This document shows, one piece after another, positions 3,888 through 12,781 of a DNA stretch of 26,098 nucleotides (position 1 is its first letter; each line of letters opens with the position of its first letter). The notes under the pieces were generated by a model that saw only the letters and a program-made list of their open reading frames with translations, made no database searches and had not been told where the DNA came from. This DNA comes from Candidatus Hermodarchaeota archaeon (GTDB lineage: Archaea > Asgardarchaeota > Lokiarchaeia > Sigyniarchaeales > SOKP01): assembly GCA_048885535.1 (NCBI GenBank), contig JBHLLO010000039.1, positions 1-26,098 on the forward strand, read 5' to 3'. The translations under genes were made by a program, and so were the position numbers.

Positions 3888-5423
3888 TTGACAGAATTTA
3901 ATGAAAAGGAATTAGGAGCAGTTATTACTCCTCAAGAGACAGCAAAATATATTGTGTCAAAATTAGGTAAAATTGAGCTAAATCAAAAGATTTTAGATCC
4001 TTGTGTTGGTCCTGGAATCTTTATCAAAACACTATTAAGTTTAGGAGTTAAAAAAAATCAGATTTATGCTTATGATATTAATCCCATCTATAAAGGAAGT
4101 ATTGAAAAATTGGGAGTCAATTTTTCAATACGGGATGCATTAATGTTAATTGATACTGATTCATTTAATGAGTTTGATTTTATAATCGGTAATCCTCCTT
4201 ACCTAAATAAATCAAGTTCTTATGTGAGAAAGAATAGGTCAAAATTAAAGCAAATTTATGGTCATATCAGCACTCACGAGACATATTCTATGTTTATTGT
4301 GAATAGTATTTGGAGATTAAAAGAAGGTGGTAAATTAGGCTTTATTACTAGTGATTCATTCTTGACTTTAATAACACATAAGAAACTTAGAAAATTCTTA
4401 CTTGAAAATACAATATTAAATGAAATCATATTACCTCCTAAAGATTTGTTTTCTAATCAGGGAGTAAGTACTAGCCCTGTTATTGTTGTATTAACCAAAT
4501 GTACAGGAAAACATAATAGTGCCAAAAGAGAAAAAAATGTAGTAAAAGTTATTACACGTCTTAAAAGTGAGGTGGAGTATTGGAACCCTCCACTGAATTT
4601 TGAAGTGAAACAAAAGAGCTATCACTCCTTACCTTTCAATATATTTTACATTGATATAGAACCTCAAATAATCAAGATGTTTGAAAAATCAGCTAAATTA
4701 AAAGATTTTATTGTGGGGTATATTGGAATGCATACTCATAACAACAAAAAGTTTATTGCAGCTATTAAAGGTACTAAATTAGCTGAGATGTTTGAAAAGA
4801 GAAATCAAAAGATTCAAAACTTGGAAAAAAAATATAAAATCATCTCCAGAAATGAACTAGAAAAAAATTGGAAGCCATATTTGAAGCGTGGAGGAGCTGA
4901 CCAATATTTCAGACCAATTATTGAAGCAATCGTGTGGGATAAAGAATCTATATCATTTTATGATATCCCTAAAAATGTGCCTTTTCAACAAGAAGGAATC
5001 GTTATAAGTGGAGTAAGTTCAAGATTAGCAGCACGCTATATGCCTAGTGGATGTTATTGGGATTCAAATAAAGCTATCGGTTTTATTGTTAAAGATAAGT
5101 CTTTTTCTATAAACTATTTCCTAGGACTGTTGAATAGTTCACTGTATAATTATCTTGCTAAAGGGATTATTAATAACACAAATAGCATACAAATTTCTGG
5201 GATCCATACATTACCGATTATCCCACCAGATGAACATACAAAGAATTCTATTGAAATAGTCGTAAATAATATAATTGAAAATAAGAAAAGTAATTTAGAA
5301 TATGATTACCGATCCGAACAAAAAGAAATTGATGATCTTATTTATGAGTTTTATGATACTAAATTTTTCTTTCCTAGAAGCTTAAAAAAGAAATTAAAGG
5401 AGAGTTTTTCAGCTTATTCTTAA
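3888..5423 (+). CDS. N6-adenine DNA methyltransferase, gamma class (TaqI/Eco57I-like), with C-terminal target recognition domain
   Basis: Motif X-like GAVITP, motif I ILDPCVGPGIF, motif IV IIGNPPY, LKEGGKLGFITSDSFL, and TRD-end motifs YFLGLLNS and LPII. TTG start. Confidence 0.88.
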   Translation: MTEFNEKELGAVITPQETAKYIVSKLGKIELNQKILDPCVGPGIFIKTLLSLGVKKNQIYAYDINPIYKGSIEKLGVNFSIRDALMLIDTDSFNEFDFIIGNPPYLNKSSSYVRKNRSKLKQIYGHISTHETYSMFIVNSIWRLKEGGKLGFITSDSFLTLITHKKLRKFLLENTILNEIILPPKDLFSNQGVSTSPVIVVLTKCTGKHNSAKREKNVVKVITRLKSEVEYWNPPLNFEVKQKSYHSLPFNIFYIDIEPQIIKMFEKSAKLKDFIVGYIGMHTHNNKKFIAAIKGTKLAEMFEKRNQKIQNLEKKYKIISRNELEKNWKPYLKRGGADQYFRPIIEAIVWDKESISFYDIPKNVPFQQEGIVISGVSSRLAARYMPSGCYWDSNKAIGFIVKDKSFSINYFLGLLNSSLYNYLAKGIINNTNSIQISGIHTLPIIPPDEHTKNSIEIVVNNIIENKKSNLEYDYRSEQKEIDDLIYEFYDTKFFFPRSLKKKLKESFSAYS

Positions 5424-8598: not shown

Positions 8599-8668
8599 CT
8601 TTTCAGCAACTAAGTAGTTATTTTTGAATCAATAGTATTATGAATATAATAGTAAAATTAAATTTTTT

Positions 8669-8692
8669 TTATTGACTTTTAAAATTCAATAA
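8669..8692. promoter_or_regulatory. 24-bp near-perfect palindrome TTATTGA-C-TTTTAAAA-T-TCAATAA (candidate operator)
   Basis: 11 of 12 symmetric pairs match. It lies in the divergent intergenic region just upstream of a TATA-like TTTATAAG (8703-8710) preceding the radical SAM gene. Confidence 0.45.
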
Positions 8693-8741
8693 TCCCCTCC
8701 AGTTTATAAGTTGACCAATAAAATATTAAAATATATCTATA

Positions 8742-10052
8742 ATGAATTTGATGATCTTAAATTTGCCATCTACCTTAGAAAAAATTCGAGTTTTGGGAGA
8801 AAATTCTAAATATGATATATGTGCTAGCACTGCTTCCAGTCGTACAAAAAAATATCCAAAATTATTTGGAGATTCAAAGAAATGGATAGGTGCTACAGCA
8901 AATGCTGGAATTTGCCATAGCTATACACCTGATGGGCGCTGTATGAGTCTTTTCAAAACGTTGTATACCAATAAATGTATTTATAATTGTAAGTACTGTT
9001 TTTCTCACAGTTGTAAGCAAAAAATGAGCTTTACGCCAGAGGAATATGCTCGTACTTTCATGAAATTATATTCAATGAACGTGGTAGAAGGCGTATTTAT
9101 TTCATCAGCAGTGTGTGGTAGTGCTGATGAAACCACAGAAGACATGTTAGAAGCAATTAAACTTTTAAGATTCAAATATAAATTTCAGGGATACATCCAC
9201 TTTAAGTGTTTACCTGGGGTAAGTCAATACCTACTTAAAGAAGCTATATCTTTGGCTGATCGCATTTCTATTAACTCAGAGGCATCAAGCAAGGAGCATC
9301 TTACCGAAATTGCTGAACAAAAGGACTTTAATAATGATATTTTAACACGTCAAAAATGGATTAAACAAATTAGGATTAAACACAATAGAGATACTCTAAA
9401 AGTCTTGAAAGATTTAAAAGAAGATTTTAAGCTCAATTTTCAGGAAAAAATGATTGAAACTCATCGAAAGGATGGATATAAAAGTTTTCGTTGGGATGGC
9501 GCTCCCATTCTAAATAGTGGTCAAACTACCCAGTTTGTTGTAGGTGCTAATGAGAATGAAACTGACTACGATTTACTTAAAAGAATTGACTGGGGATATA
9601 AAGAAATTGACCTCAGACGTGCTTATTTCTCTTCATTTATACCCATAGAGGGCACTCCCTTACAAGATAGGCAAGCAACTCCACTAACAAGAGAGCACAA
9701 ATTATATCAATGTGATTGGCTCTTGAGGATATATCATTATACATTAAGAGAATTAAAAGAAATAATTACAGATGAGGGAAATTTACCAGATGGAGATCCA
9801 AAGATGCATTTGGCAAGACAATATTTTAGGGAGTTTGGACCAATTGATCCAAACATTGCTTCATATTATGATTTACTTCGTATACCTGGTATTGGCCCAA
9901 TTTCTGCTAAAAGAATTATTAATCTAAGGGCTAAAAAATTCAAATTCAAGAGTCGTGCTGAGTTAAAATCTGTTGGAGTGGTACTTAAAAGGGCAGATTC
10001 TTTTATTTTGTTAAATGGACAAAATCAGAAAACCTTAACTAGCTTTGTTTAA
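8742..10052 (+). CDS. Putative DNA modification/repair radical SAM protein with helix-hairpin-helix (TIGR03916-like)
   Basis: KYDICAS, GICHSYTPDGRC.SLFKTL, CxxxCxxC (CIYNCKYC), GYIHFK, GQTTQFVVGA, REHKLYQCDWLLRIY, DPK, and HhH LLRIPGIGPISAKRII. Confidence 0.92.
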   Translation: MNLMILNLPSTLEKIRVLGENSKYDICASTASSRTKKYPKLFGDSKKWIGATANAGICHSYTPDGRCMSLFKTLYTNKCIYNCKYCFSHSCKQKMSFTPEEYARTFMKLYSMNVVEGVFISSAVCGSADETTEDMLEAIKLLRFKYKFQGYIHFKCLPGVSQYLLKEAISLADRISINSEASSKEHLTEIAEQKDFNNDILTRQKWIKQIRIKHNRDTLKVLKDLKEDFKLNFQEKMIETHRKDGYKSFRWDGAPILNSGQTTQFVVGANENETDYDLLKRIDWGYKEIDLRRAYFSSFIPIEGTPLQDRQATPLTREHKLYQCDWLLRIYHYTLRELKEIITDEGNLPDGDPKMHLARQYFREFGPIDPNIASYYDLLRIPGIGPISAKRIINLRAKKFKFKSRAELKSVGVVLKRADSFILLNGQNQKTLTSFV

Positions 10053-10072
10053 GATTTTTATAATCATAATTA

Positions 10073-10753
10073 ATGTTAAATAAAATGAAAGAAAAAAAAT
10101 TCAAAGACCCATTAGAAGTAATGGGGTGTGCAAAAGGCTATTCTCGTGAAGAATTAGTTAAAAATCTGAAGAGACATGCTCGATTTACATCAAAATTAAT
10201 CAGACAAATTAATGAGATACCTGATGTTGTTTTACGCAATTTAGGAACGCCTCAAGCAAGAAAGATTAATAGAATGATGCGAGAAGTATTTACTGAAGCT
10301 TACAGAGCAAAACAGTTTACTCGAACAGAAATAAATAATCGTGGTGTATTATATGGGGTAGTATTTCTAAAACATCAAGTTATTGATTTTGTGTTAAAAT
10401 ATTTTCATGAAAGATGGTCTGAATGTGTTATTTGTCTTTATAATGAATATAATAAAATTACTAGCACTATTAATGAAAGAGGTGAAATACAAGAAATTAA
10501 ATTGCCCTTAATGGTGGTTGTTGATCAAATTAGTAAAGATCGACCCATAATTCCATACTTCGAAGATATTCAATTTTCTGGAAACGAAATATTTGAGACT
10601 TTATATAAATCTCAATTTATTAAGGAGAGAGAAAATAATTCATACTATAAAAAAATGATTCCAAAGCAGTGCTTTGAGCTACCTGGTCTGAGGAAAGGAA
10701 TTGAAAGAAAACATTGGCAGAAATACAGAAGCCTTGATTCCTTCTATAAATAA
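10073..10753 (+). CDS. DUF4130 domain protein (TIGR03915-like partner of the radical SAM)
   Basis: REVFTEAYRAKQFTR resembles the V.RE.HR.K.F.RF motif. Also H.V....KYFHERW and LYKSQFIKEREN...MIPK. It starts 20 nt downstream of the TIGR03916-like gene. Confidence 0.75.
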   Translation: MLNKMKEKKFKDPLEVMGCAKGYSREELVKNLKRHARFTSKLIRQINEIPDVVLRNLGTPQARKINRMMREVFTEAYRAKQFTRTEINNRGVLYGVVFLKHQVIDFVLKYFHERWSECVICLYNEYNKITSTINERGEIQEIKLPLMVVVDQISKDRPIIPYFEDIQFSGNEIFETLYKSQFIKERENNSYYKKMIPKQCFELPGLRKGIERKHWQKYRSLDSFYK

Positions 10754-10790
10754 GGCAAGAAGTTTTTAAAAAGATTAAAAAAATTAGTTC

Positions 10791-10910
10791 TTATTTTCTC
10801 TTTCTTTTTCTTAGTTGATATAGGACTACCAATCCTATAATTGTACCTCCACCCACCACTGAAACAGTAGAAGTAAAATCTACAACATCACGAAGAATGA
10901 ATGGAAACAT
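10791..10910 (-). CDS. Small single-pass membrane peptide, 39 aa (not in ORF track)
   Basis: Hand translation gives MFPFILRDVVDFTSTVSVVGGGTIIGLVVLYQLRKRKRK*: ATG start, hydrophobic segment, basic tail, and T-runs after the stop. Confidence 0.6.
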   Translation of the reverse strand: MFPFILRDVVDFTSTVSVVGGGTIIGLVVLYQLRKRKRK

Positions 10911-11100: not shown

Positions 11101-11892
11101 ATGGTAAAATTAATGGAACCAAAAGTTATTTCATTTAGTGGAAAAGGAGGGGTTGGAAAATCAACCTTACTTGTGTTGATGTTAAAATACATTCTAGAGA
11201 CTAAACAATTTGAGAACATCCTCGTAATTGATGCTGATCCTGATGCGAATATTGGAGATATGGTTGGTAAAGAAATAAAATTTGGAGAAACTGTGGGGGG
11301 AAAAATGACCAAATTGCAGGAGAGAATCCAAAACCGTGAAATTCCATTAGATGTTTCGAAAAATCAGATTATTGAGTCAGAAGTATTTGAGGCTTTAATA
11401 GAAATGGATGATTTTGACTTGATCGAGATGGGAAGAGGGGAAGGAGAAGGTTGTTACTGCAGTGTTAATAATTCTTTGAAACGTATAATTGACGTCTTAG
11501 CTAAAAATTATGATATTGTTTTGATTGATGCTCCAGCAGGTTTAGAATATTTTGCACGAAAAACTGGTCAGGATGTAACGGATTTGATTATTGTAACAGA
11601 TCCGAGTAAAATGGGTTTTCATACGATGGAACGGATAGTAGAAGTAAGTAATGAAGTTAAATTAAAATTTAAACAAATTTTAATAATCGGAAATAGATTC
11701 TCGAAAGATTTAGTTAGCATAATTTCAAAACGAGTTCTAAATGTCAATGATGATAGGGTAAAATTCTTAGGAATATTGCCTTATGATGAAGAAATAAGTA
11801 AATTTAATCTTACAGGAAATAATCTATTGGAATTAGAAAAAGATAATAAAATGTATATAGAAGCAAAAAAATTATATGCAAAAGTTATCTAA
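11101..11892 (+). CDS. cooC: CooC/AcsF-type nickel-insertion ATPase (MinD/ParA superfamily)
   Basis: Deviant Walker A GKGGVGKS, IDADPDAN, Ni-binding GEGCYC, DAPAGLEYFARK. The start may be the ATG at 11113. Confidence 0.85.
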   Translation: MVKLMEPKVISFSGKGGVGKSTLLVLMLKYILETKQFENILVIDADPDANIGDMVGKEIKFGETVGGKMTKLQERIQNREIPLDVSKNQIIESEVFEALIEMDDFDLIEMGRGEGEGCYCSVNNSLKRIIDVLAKNYDIVLIDAPAGLEYFARKTGQDVTDLIIVTDPSKMGFHTMERIVEVSNEVKLKFKQILIIGNRFSKDLVSIISKRVLNVNDDRVKFLGILPYDEEISKFNLTGNNLLELEKDNKMYIEAKKLYAKVI

Positions 11893-11968: not shown

Positions 11969-12781
11969 TTATTCCTGTCTATAGACAGGAACGATTTTTG
12001 AAGTGAAGTCTTCAAGAGTATAAGGGAATTCATCCTCGCTTGAGATTTTCCCCAATTCCAACATAACTTGTCTTGCTAATAACCAAAATGCTAAACCCAA
12101 TGCTTTTTTGCCACGATTATTTGCAGGAACAGCAAGATCAATTCCATCAAGAATATCATCAGTATCAAATAAAGAGACTACTGGAATACGTGCCAATTTG
12201 GCTTCACGAAGGATAACTTTATCTGCATGAGGATCTACAATAACAACGACAGAAGCATCTTTGATATAATCATCAATCTGTGGATTAGTTAATGAGCCAG
12301 GTATAAATCTATCAACAATAGCTTTGCATCCTAAAGCTTCACAAAATTTTCGGACTGGTTCTTTACCATATCTCCTAACGGATGTTACAATTACACGATC
12401 ACTTCCTTCTTCGATATATTTACTTAAAAATTTCGCAGCAATTTTTAACCTCTCATCTGTCTTTGTTAAATCGATAACATATAGTCCGTAATTAGTCTGC
12501 CTATAAATAAATCTCCGTGCATCTCCAGATAACAATTTCGTTCCAATATGTATCCCACAACTCAAATATAGTTGTTTTTGTTCTTCATCTTTATCAATAA
12601 TTTTTTGAGCAGTAATATCGTCTTCTTCAATACTTTCAGCATCAAGTAGGTCTAGTTCTTCAACTAGATCGAGATCCTCTTCGAAGTCTTCAACAAAATC
12701 TTCTTCAAATTCATTATCTTCTATCTTTTCCTTTGTTTCTGTTTTTTTAGCATCATCAGTTTTTTTCTTCTTTTTAGCCAA
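11969..12781 (-). CDS. rps2: 30S ribosomal protein uS2 (archaeal type) with charged N-terminal extension
   Basis: YLSCGIHIGTK, YVIDLTKTDERL, RFIPGSLTNPQ, IPVVSLFDTD, PANNRGKKALGLAFWLLARQV. TTG start. Confidence 0.95.
   Translation of the reverse strand: MAKKKKKTDDAKKTETKEKIEDNEFEEDFVEDFEEDLDLVEELDLLDAESIEEDDITAQKIIDKDEEQKQLYLSCGIHIGTKLLSGDARRFIYRQTNYGLYVIDLTKTDERLKIAAKFLSKYIEEGSDRVIVTSVRRYGKEPVRKFCEALGCKAIVDRFIPGSLTNPQIDDYIKDASVVVIVDPHADKVILREAKLARIPVVSLFDTDDILDGIDLAVPANNRGKKALGLAFWLLARQVMLELGKISSEDEFPYTLEDFTSKIVPVYRQE

Follow-up and report, generated by a model that had tools for sequence, protein, structure and literature searches.

Two adjacent genes on a contig of Candidatus Hermodarchaeota archaeon represent a genuine Asgard copy, intact and unexceptional, of a system that is known but has yet to be characterised, in which a radical S-adenosylmethionine (SAM) enzyme of the COG4277/TIGR03916 type (gene A) is followed by a protein of the DUF4130/TIGR03915 type (gene B). 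The contig (JBHLLO010000039.1 of assembly GCA_048885535.1), analysed over positions 1 to 26,098 of its forward strand, is called the window hereafter. The reading favoured here, with slightly better than even confidence, is that A and B form an operon, the Asgard form of the so-called 'DNA modification/repair' pair, and that their products would act on DNA as a radical SAM pair docked on the sliding clamp, most likely in repair; DNA binding, the A-B complex, the substrate, and the chemistry are presumed in it. Taken by itself, the assignment of the two proteins to these families is almost certainly correct, as judged from profile matches.

In bacteria, the pair is known as the COG4277-COG1573 operon, which is comprised of a TIGR03916 enzyme and a TIGR03915 protein, the latter often fused to a TIGR03914/UdgX-family domain. 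Examples are found in Phaeobacter inhibens pP78_a (WP_102916004/WP_102916005) and Pusillibacter faecalis (WP_187030908/WP_187030910). One published account predicts DUF4130 to be a mutagenesis-related enzyme linked with SplB-like radical SAM proteins and uracil-DNA glycosylases (UDGs) (PMC3765255). In another, the predicted LexA regulons of Bacteroidetes include the COG1573-COG4277 operon, and SplB (COG1533) is treated as a different gene (PMC8565304). For a bacterial pair, a preprint reports a confident AlphaFold 3 complex, with SAM beside the Cys motif and a narrow channel, and notes that DUF4130 has no conserved catalytic residues, not even in its long form (10.64898/2026.08.19.745780). A literature search, supplements excepted, turned up no biochemical study of any TIGR03916/TIGR03915 member.

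The gene pair and its protein families

In the list of open reading frames (ORFs), gene A (436 residues) and gene B (226 residues) lie on the same strand, in the arrangement given below together with their domains and flanking signals.

8599..8741, forward strand: presumed promoter region, an A/T-rich intergenic stretch divergent from the gene of a thiamine pyrophosphate (TPP) enzyme, proposed from reading the sequence
8742..10052, forward strand: gene A, radical SAM enzyme with a C-terminal helix-hairpin-helix (HhH) domain, COG4277/TIGR03916 type (ORF, Pfam, NCBIfam, and structure model)
8820..8942, forward strand: N-terminal Cys27, Cys58-His59, and Cys67, a candidate accessory site with presumed metal binding
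8976..8999, forward strand: CxxxCxxC cluster motif, C79/C83/C86
9378..9500, forward strand: insertion within the radical SAM core, specific to the clade and about 41 residues long (213-253; alignment occupancy, low model confidence)
9840..9974, forward strand: HhH DNA-binding domain, residues 367-411 (PF12836 HHH_3, E = 3.9e-10)
10026..10049, forward strand: C-terminal motif QKTLTSFV of gene A, resembling a PCNA-interacting protein (PIP) box (orthologue conservation)
10053..10072, forward strand: intergenic spacer of 20 nucleotides (nt)
10073..10753, forward strand: gene B, short DUF4130 protein, a TIGR03915 relative lacking the N-terminal domain (PF13566 and TIGR03915)
10193..10672, forward strand: DUF4130 domain proper, residues 41-200, with a DHHA1-like predicted fold (PF13566 match)
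10724..10747, forward strand: PIP-like C-terminal motif YRSLDSFY, followed by K, of gene B, with no leading Gln (conservation in related loci)
10789..10813, forward strand: T-rich tract after gene B, a possible archaeal transcription stop (recognised by eye)

Gene A matches TIGR03916 with an E-value of 9.1e-102 and 341.2 bits over model positions 3-382 of 415, which is 2.3 bits short of the curated cut-off (343.5 bits) because of the 41-residue insertion and a diverged C-terminus. Its homology to this family is, on the profile evidence, not in doubt, and it is best called a diverged subfamily. The Pfam models Radical_SAM (PF04055; 30.1 bits, cut-off 29.5) and HHH_3 (PF12836; 40.1 bits, cut-off 27) are both matched above their cut-offs. 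In an alignment of 99 homologues, C79, C83, and C86 are invariant in every sequence and are the only invariant cysteines, which argues against RlmN- or MiaB-type chemistry; R143, H153, N178, E180, Q264, D275, Y331, and K354 are invariant as well.

Gene B matches PF13566 with 52.2 bits (gathering score 27) over residues 41-200. Its match to TIGR03915 (42.1 bits) is far below the cut-off of 112.25 and covers model positions 84-235 of 243, so that positions 1-83 are missing. Because the match begins at model position 84 and the 20-nt gap leaves no room for further coding sequence, the usual N-terminal segment of B is missing from the locus, and a profile search of the host genome found no second TIGR03915 match. 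A sequence-only reading of this DNA had proposed a two-gene unit with a 20-nt gap, a CxxxCxxC radical SAM enzyme with a C-terminal HhH motif, membership of the TIGR03916 and DUF4130 families, and a divergent partner without the usual N-terminal segment, and all of these proposals agree with the coordinates and profile matches given above.

The same reading had also pointed out extra Cys and His residues near the N-terminus of A. C27, C58, H59, and C67 are indeed present, but the quartet is complete in just 23 of the 99 aligned homologues, so it is a subfamily feature and not a family feature; proteins from Phaeobacter, Pusillibacter, and Azospirillum have it too. The idea that these residues form a universal second cluster was rejected on the same count.

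With regard to the insertion, residues 213-253 of A have low confidence in the model and a column occupancy of 0.02-0.45 in the 99-homologue alignment, and most homologue matches to A align as two stretches flanking this region. The insertion is specific to the clade of the window. A role for it in compensating for the short partner was considered and rejected, since partners of 200-240 residues are likewise found in Asgard families whose enzymes, of about 390 residues, are without the insertion.

The AlphaFold2 model of A (mean predicted local distance difference test, pLDDT, 89.5) contains a radical SAM barrel. Its closest solved folds in a Foldseek search are HydE (E = 1.8e-7), ThiH, BioB (biotin synthase), pyruvate formate-lyase activase, lipoyl synthase, and viperin. 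When a profile of the A family was compared with the PDB, the only matches were to the stretch of HydE that binds the cluster and to HhH regions, namely those of ComEA (E = 5.9e-9), Pol X, and RuvA, which implies that no member of the family has a solved structure. SplB (COG1533) is a radical SAM enzyme with DNA as its target, as A is presumed to be; it is SOS-regulated in some bacteria (PMC8565304) and serves as an analogy for the family of the pair (PMC3765255). However, it belongs to a separate COG (PMC8565304). Spore photoproduct lyase (SPL) has no DUF4130 partner and is found neither among the Foldseek matches listed for the A model nor among the PDB profile matches, and A has no invariant counterpart of the conserved Cys hydrogen donor of the SPL type.

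The model of B has a mean pLDDT of 86.7. A Foldseek comparison of it with the PDB returned nothing at E <= 0.001, and the weak top rows were DHH-family proteins. Compared with the DHH/DHHA1 phosphoesterases (RecJ, archaeal GAN/RecJ-Cdc45, NrnA, and GdpP), B lacks the catalytic DHH domain, and identity is 4-10%; in the model, the short Asgard partner looks like the substrate-binding half alone. A total of 487 relatives of B were found, of which those listed have 210-234 residues and are 62-88% identical, and they are named from metagenome-assembled genomes (MAGs) of Heimdall-, Loki-, Thor-, Hod-, Hermod-, and Odinarchaeota.

The distribution of the short form was examined in 301 genomes of the Asgard phylum, which were grouped by taxonomic family (f1 being the family of the window). 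TIGR03915 had 97 matches, nearly all starting at model position 60-110 in frames of 200-250 residues, and not one of the 301 genomes reached the cut-off. A short partner is thus what Asgard genomes usually have, and the window is no exception: the sequence-only reading was right that B is short but not that this sets it apart. A few longer Asgard partners of 318-331 residues keep an N-terminal extension, with the TIGR03915 match starting at position 4 in one of them and at positions 42-80 in the others. A single protein of 664 residues combines both genes, with the radical SAM/HhH part, a PIP motif kept at the junction, and then DUF4130; it was seen as one sequence on a single contig and could be either a natural fusion or the product of an artefactual frameshift.

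The Asgard and bacterial pairs have in common the gene order, the tight spacing, the HhH domain, and the DUF4130 domain, and their enzymes share the invariant CxxxCxxC motif, R143, H153, Q264, D275, Y331, K354, and a C-terminal clamp-type peptide. On the other hand, the tail of the Asgard enzyme is of the PIP type and not QLxLF, and the enzyme carries the 41-residue insertion. The Asgard partner lacks about 80 N-terminal residues and the UDG domain and has a clamp-type tail of its own. Both proteins of the window, unlike the bacterial type, also score under the curated NCBIfam cut-offs. Judged from these sequences, the Asgard architecture departs from the described bacterial type in its short partner, the lack of a UDG, two PIP-type tails, and the enzyme insertion.

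C-terminal tails and the sliding clamp

Among clamp-binding peptides, QL[SD]LF is the consensus for binding to the bacterial beta clamp, and Qxx[LIM]xx[FY][FY] is the PIP box. The sequence-only reading had noticed PIP-box-like tails on both proteins, and these are found at QKTLTSFV in A and YRSLDSFY-K in B. Measured against Q-x-x-[LIM]-x-x-[FY]-[FYW], the tail of A fits at positions 1, 4, and 7, with Val at position 8, and the tail of B fits at positions 4, 7, and 8. Both motifs stand at the extreme C-terminus, past the last folded element, where the pLDDT of the models falls to about 70 (A) and 61-73 (B).

Conservation was followed in the nearest-relative set of A, which consists of 80 loci from a species-level genome collection. 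Q-x-x-[LIM]-x-x-[FY] is kept in 77 of 77 complete Asgard A orthologues, the other three loci having been left out as truncated or containing N. It comes right after a conserved VVLKRADP[FY]LxING strand, and the residues past it vary: they are absent in about one fifth of the orthologues, and in many about 12 unconserved residues follow. In all 78 loci with B, its final 16 residues contain [ILV]-x-x-[FY] and then L, F, or I. A typical end is RFRNKK[IL]N[DE][FY][LF]-COOH, with Asn at the position of the PIP Gln in 70 of the 78. Even the highly diverged partners of other Asgard families, which match B of the window only with E-values of 1e-5 to 1e-22, still end in [KT]x[LI]Dx[FY][LFI] (for example, TLDSFF, KLDEFL, and TLDKFI).

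A wider view of the enzyme tails came from 150 representatives, clustered at 50% identity from a library of 1.8 billion proteins, whose last 30 residues were scored for the PIP-type pattern and for a beta-clamp-type pattern, Q[LMIV]x[LM][FWPL]. The PIP type was found in 47 and the beta-clamp type in 36, compared with 14 and 4 of 1765 interior 30-residue windows and with means of 3.9 and 1.6 in shuffled tails. Taxon names were obtained for four of 15 PIP-type representatives looked up, all archaea (Woesearchaeota, Diapherotrites, Micrarchaeota, and Altiarchaeota), and for four of 15 clamp-type representatives, all bacteria (Selenomonadales, Peptococcaceae, Lachnospiraceae, and Armatimonadota). 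In addition, the tails of all 11 named bacterial homologues, which are encoded on plasmids or chromids, show QL[SAQR]L[FLI] or a sequence very near to it (QLALF, QLSLF, QLQLL, QLRLL, QLSLL, QLSLI, or QLSLGF), one of them about 30 residues from the end. They come from Phaeobacter, Pusillibacter, Azospirillum, Ensifer, Subdoligranulum, Paracoccus, Agrobacterium, Acinetobacter, Ketogulonicigenium, Burkholderia, and Methylobacterium. It appears from these tails that the motif type follows the domain of life, PIP in archaea and beta-clamp in bacteria. No clamp motif was seen at the end of the bacterial partners, comprising three standalone proteins and eight fusions.

Several enzymes of the host offer a direct comparison. 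In other archaea, PCNA binding is established for the families of FEN1, RNase HII, PolD DP2, PolB, Y-family polymerase, and Nre. In the host genome, these proteins end in FEN1 KQLTLDSFFKKS (LTLDSFFKKS), LQMTLDHFR (a FEN1 paralogue), RNase HII YNKKLTDYTKSLL (NKKLTDYT), TQKTLHEFL (Nre), and KQQKLSDFF (PolD DP2), and the tails of PolB and the Y-family polymerase (PolY) are canonical as well. The two tail forms of B, LDSF[FY] and NKK[IL]xD[FY], thus both occur on textbook PCNA clients of the host. These clients are enzymes unrelated to A and B, yet their motif is of a like kind and has the same position. Ten of the 28 host ORFs with the motif in their last 12 residues, picked by eye for the quality of the motif, were annotated, namely PolD DP2, PolB, the Y-family polymerase, Nre, a deoxynucleoside-kinase-like protein, a DUF72 protein, an N6/N4 DNA methylase, a leucine-rich repeat protein, and two proteins without Pfam matches. 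The C-terminal PIP-type pattern does pick out clamp clients in this genome.

Taken together, the tails suggest that A probably docks on the sliding clamp, and for B docking is marginally favoured. The coupling to PCNA put forward in the sequence-only reading has gained comparative support from conserved tails (77/77 in A and 78/78 in B) and from a motif type that switches to that of the beta clamp in 11 of 11 bacteria. A prediction of PCNA in complex with full-length B gave an interface score (ipSAE) of 0.00 and 0.00 in two runs without controls, for which the mark is 0.32, and this outcome counts neither for nor against binding. No publication linking the COG4277/TIGR03916 family to a sliding clamp was found in the literature search.

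Some further features of clamp biology were observed in the host. PCNA is encoded at 1489-2313 of contig C12, and the PCNAs of its family are extended at the C-terminus by an acidic stretch that finishes in ...DMDEF or DEFDEF. This stretch is absent from the PCNAs of the other Asgard families sampled. The PCNA of the window's family is 27-35% identical to the PCNAs of other families aligned, as against 58-88% for the radical SAM enzyme across the 80 loci. The genome has two FEN1/XPG-type paralogues (351 and 364 residues; contigs C8 and C26), both with C-terminal PIP-type motifs. Possible unrecognised PCNA clients include the deoxynucleoside-kinase-like protein (contig C12, 7188-7904; TQKTLSDFLV), the DUF72 protein (contig C22, 41285-42169; GQSALNKYLK), and the N6/N4 DNA methylase (contig C16, 7512-8321; LQTGLDNF).

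Distribution, neighbourhood, and uracil-DNA glycosylases

The host genome measures 3.09 Mb in 112 contigs and is 91.6% complete, and A and B are each single-copy in it. The stretch is present in nine sequencing runs, all of sediment metagenome DNA and none of RNA. Nearly all of the 80 related loci are from Promethearchaeota, Promethearchaeia, Hod-, Thor-, or Odinarchaeota MAGs and include Candidatus Lokiarchaeum ossiferum (65% identity); one is titled as a Nanopelagicaceae bacterium MAG. Identity across the set is 58-88% for A (most above 72%) and mostly 59-73% for B (range 40-73%). In 78 of the 80 loci, A is followed by B with both genes on one strand, the two misses being ORFs cut by contig ends, and the intergenic distance is mostly -37 to +36 nt.

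The pair is surrounded by housekeeping genes, including those for dihydroxy-acid dehydratase, glutamine synthetase, the TPP enzyme, uS2, thymidylate kinase, and enzymes of the shikimate pathway, and neighbours are retained across the 80 loci (59 have a ParA/CooC-like ATPase, 56 the TPP enzyme, and 49 uS2). These syntenic neighbours indicate that the pair is a vertically kept chromosomal operon and not an island. A mobile-island or defence context was rejected for the same reason, in an analysis to which the padloc and phrogs libraries did not contribute.

Three neighbours deserve a separate description. A DNA N6-adenine methyltransferase of 511 residues (Eco57I, N6_Mtase, and TaqI_C matches) is encoded at 3888-5423 on the forward strand, with no restriction enzyme seen beside it. 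It has homologues in 55 of the 80 related loci and is thus a conserved, apparently orphan methylase of the same syntenic block. A ParA/MinD/CooC-like P-loop ATPase at 11101-11892 (forward strand; 348 nt downstream of B) weakly matches the NUBPL/Mrp family of iron-sulfur carriers, and a link between this ATPase and cluster loading of the radical SAM enzyme is possible. The uS2 protein at 11969-12781 (reverse strand) has a Lys/Glu/Asp-rich N-terminal extension of about 70 residues before the conserved domain.

Within the Asgard phylum, the pair is patchy by taxonomic family. TIGR03916 was matched at E <= 0.001 in 116 of the 301 genomes, about 101 of them with E < 1e-50 and 56 above the cut-off. 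Strong matches were found in 53 of 68 genomes of f1, 16 of 28 of f7, 14 of 21 of f24, and all five of f10, compared with none of 76 in f9 and none of 19 in f14. The partner tracks the enzyme (TIGR03915 in 52 of 68 genomes of f1, 16 of 28 of f7, and 15 of 21 of f24) except in f10, where it was found in none of the five. The solo radical SAM/HhH homologues of f10 have about 386 residues, and their tails read QLKLDEVY and QLRLGDV.

The sequence-only reading had also stressed that no UDG gene accompanies the pair. Neither TIGR03914 nor PF03167 had a match even at E <= 1 in the host genome at its 91.6% completeness, and the other ORFs of the window belong to unrelated Pfam families, with no UDG domain fused or adjacent to the DUF4130 gene. 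The absence therefore stands, but it is not special, because standalone partners also occur in three of the 11 bacterial loci (the other eight have DUF4130-UdgX fusions) and because it extends through the family. UDG-superfamily (PF03167) matches were found in six of 68 f1 genomes versus 68 of 76 in f9 and 19 of 19 in f14. The pair and a UDG are both present in f7 (16 and 27 of 28 genomes), as are the enzyme and a UDG in f10 (five and five of five, with TIGR03915 in none), and one genus of f1 has neither the pair nor a UDG (none of four genomes for each). The lack of a UDG is thus a lineage trait and not evidence of replacement, and a strict rule by which the pair replaces UDG was rejected on these counts. 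As for the route of uracil removal, no PF03167 member was found in the host genome, in searches that did not cover endonuclease Q, endonuclease V, and ExoIII.

Possible mode of action and biological meaning

The favoured reading can be laid out as a sequence of proposed steps. Briefly, A would hold a [4Fe-4S] cluster on C79/C83/C86 and cleave SAM to a 5'-deoxyadenosyl radical, and its HhH domain would grip the backbone of duplex DNA. A and B would form a heterodimer, in which B might serve as a non-catalytic, DHHA1-like nucleotide-binding module that helps to bring an extruded nucleotide or a single strand into the active site. The complex would be docked on PCNA by one or both C-terminal PIP-type tails, so that the enzyme would act on DNA at replication forks or repair gaps. 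The radical would then abstract a hydrogen from a DNA lesion and thereby reverse or process it. Between repair and modification, repair is moderately preferred.

A number of observations count against this reading. The case for repair comes from bacterial regulation alone, with nothing at the archaeal locus pointing to damage. The tail of B lacks the Gln of the PIP box, and position 8 of the A motif is often non-aromatic (I in 34, F in 14, S in 10, and T in nine of 77, and also L or V). In f10, no partner gene adjoins that of the enzyme in any of the three loci examined, and the tails are weaker there. Among the 150 representatives, 72 (some of them fragments or longer fusions) have neither motif, and taxon names are at hand for just eight of the 30 looked up. 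Moreover, PIP-like motifs are not rare in the AT-rich host, whose proteome is rich in Lys, Asn, Ile, and Phe: Qxx[LIM]xx[FY] occurs in the last 12 residues of 28 of 1888 ORFs of at least 200 residues, and the looser B-type pattern in 74 of 1888. A single occurrence of the motif is therefore weak evidence, and it is the conservation across orthologues that lifts the A motif above chance.

An alternative, which we consider unlikely, is that the same enzyme system writes a DNA modification on new DNA behind the fork, tethered to the clamp like some maintenance methyltransferases. The NCBI family name leaves modification open, clamp tethering would suit post-replicative marking equally well, and a DNA N6-methyltransferase gene lies 3.3 kb upstream, with homologues in 55 of 80 loci, although this may be plain synteny. 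However, the bacterial operons lie in predicted SOS regulons (PMC8565304), and the bacterial pairs are often fused to or paired with a UdgX-type lesion binder (8/11 loci). The enzyme also has no invariant extra Cys or universal second cluster, which the known radical SAM methylases and thiolases need, and a distribution as patchy as that observed (0/76 in f9) would be unusual for a core epigenetic mark.

It is also distinctly unlikely that the tails do not bind the clamp at all and instead are structural parts of the HhH domain or form the A-B contact, their likeness to PIP boxes being convergent or compositional. The weak position 8 of A and the missing Gln of B would agree with this, as would the chance frequency of such motifs (1.5-4% of long host ORFs); the examined bacterial partners, which have no clamp motif, indicate further that the two-tail arrangement is not general. 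Against it, the motif type follows the domain (77/77 Asgard and 4/4 archaeal enzymes versus 11/11 and 4/4 bacterial ones), and such a domain-linked switch argues against a purely structural element. The motifs lie in lower-confidence tails past the last folded element, in many cases followed by about 12 unconserved residues, and the same forms end known PCNA clients of the host. Finally, action on RNA (for example, tRNA or rRNA) in place of DNA is very improbable, since the HhH is of the ComEA, Pol X, and RuvA kind that binds duplex DNA, and DNA is also indicated by the fusions with UdgX, the clamp motifs, and the place of the operon in SOS regulons (PMC8565304).

If the reading of a clamp-docked repair pair is extended to the whole COG4277 family, the enzyme might be a general client of sliding clamps, with a tail re-fitted to the beta clamp in bacteria or to PCNA in archaea. 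In the Asgard partner, a second PCNA peptide would then have been acquired and the N-terminal domain lost, and one heterodimer might span two PCNA subunits and use radical chemistry for the direct reversal, at the fork, of a replication-blocking lesion, maybe a uracil- or abasic-derived adduct in a lineage without UDG. This extended scheme is tentative and, in its entirety, rather doubtful.

The pair represents a widespread, damage-linked 'DNA repair' gene set without a known chemistry, and the link to the clamp would be a concrete lead for the whole family that is cheap to test. A clamp peptide would tell where the enzyme works, namely on clamp-loaded DNA at forks or repair gaps. Because the Asgard form is minimal, with no UDG and a one-domain partner, it may be the easiest to reconstitute and to solve. 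The finding also bears on how base damage is handled in a lineage close to eukaryotes, in which most of the sampled genomes of the family have no recognisable UDG.

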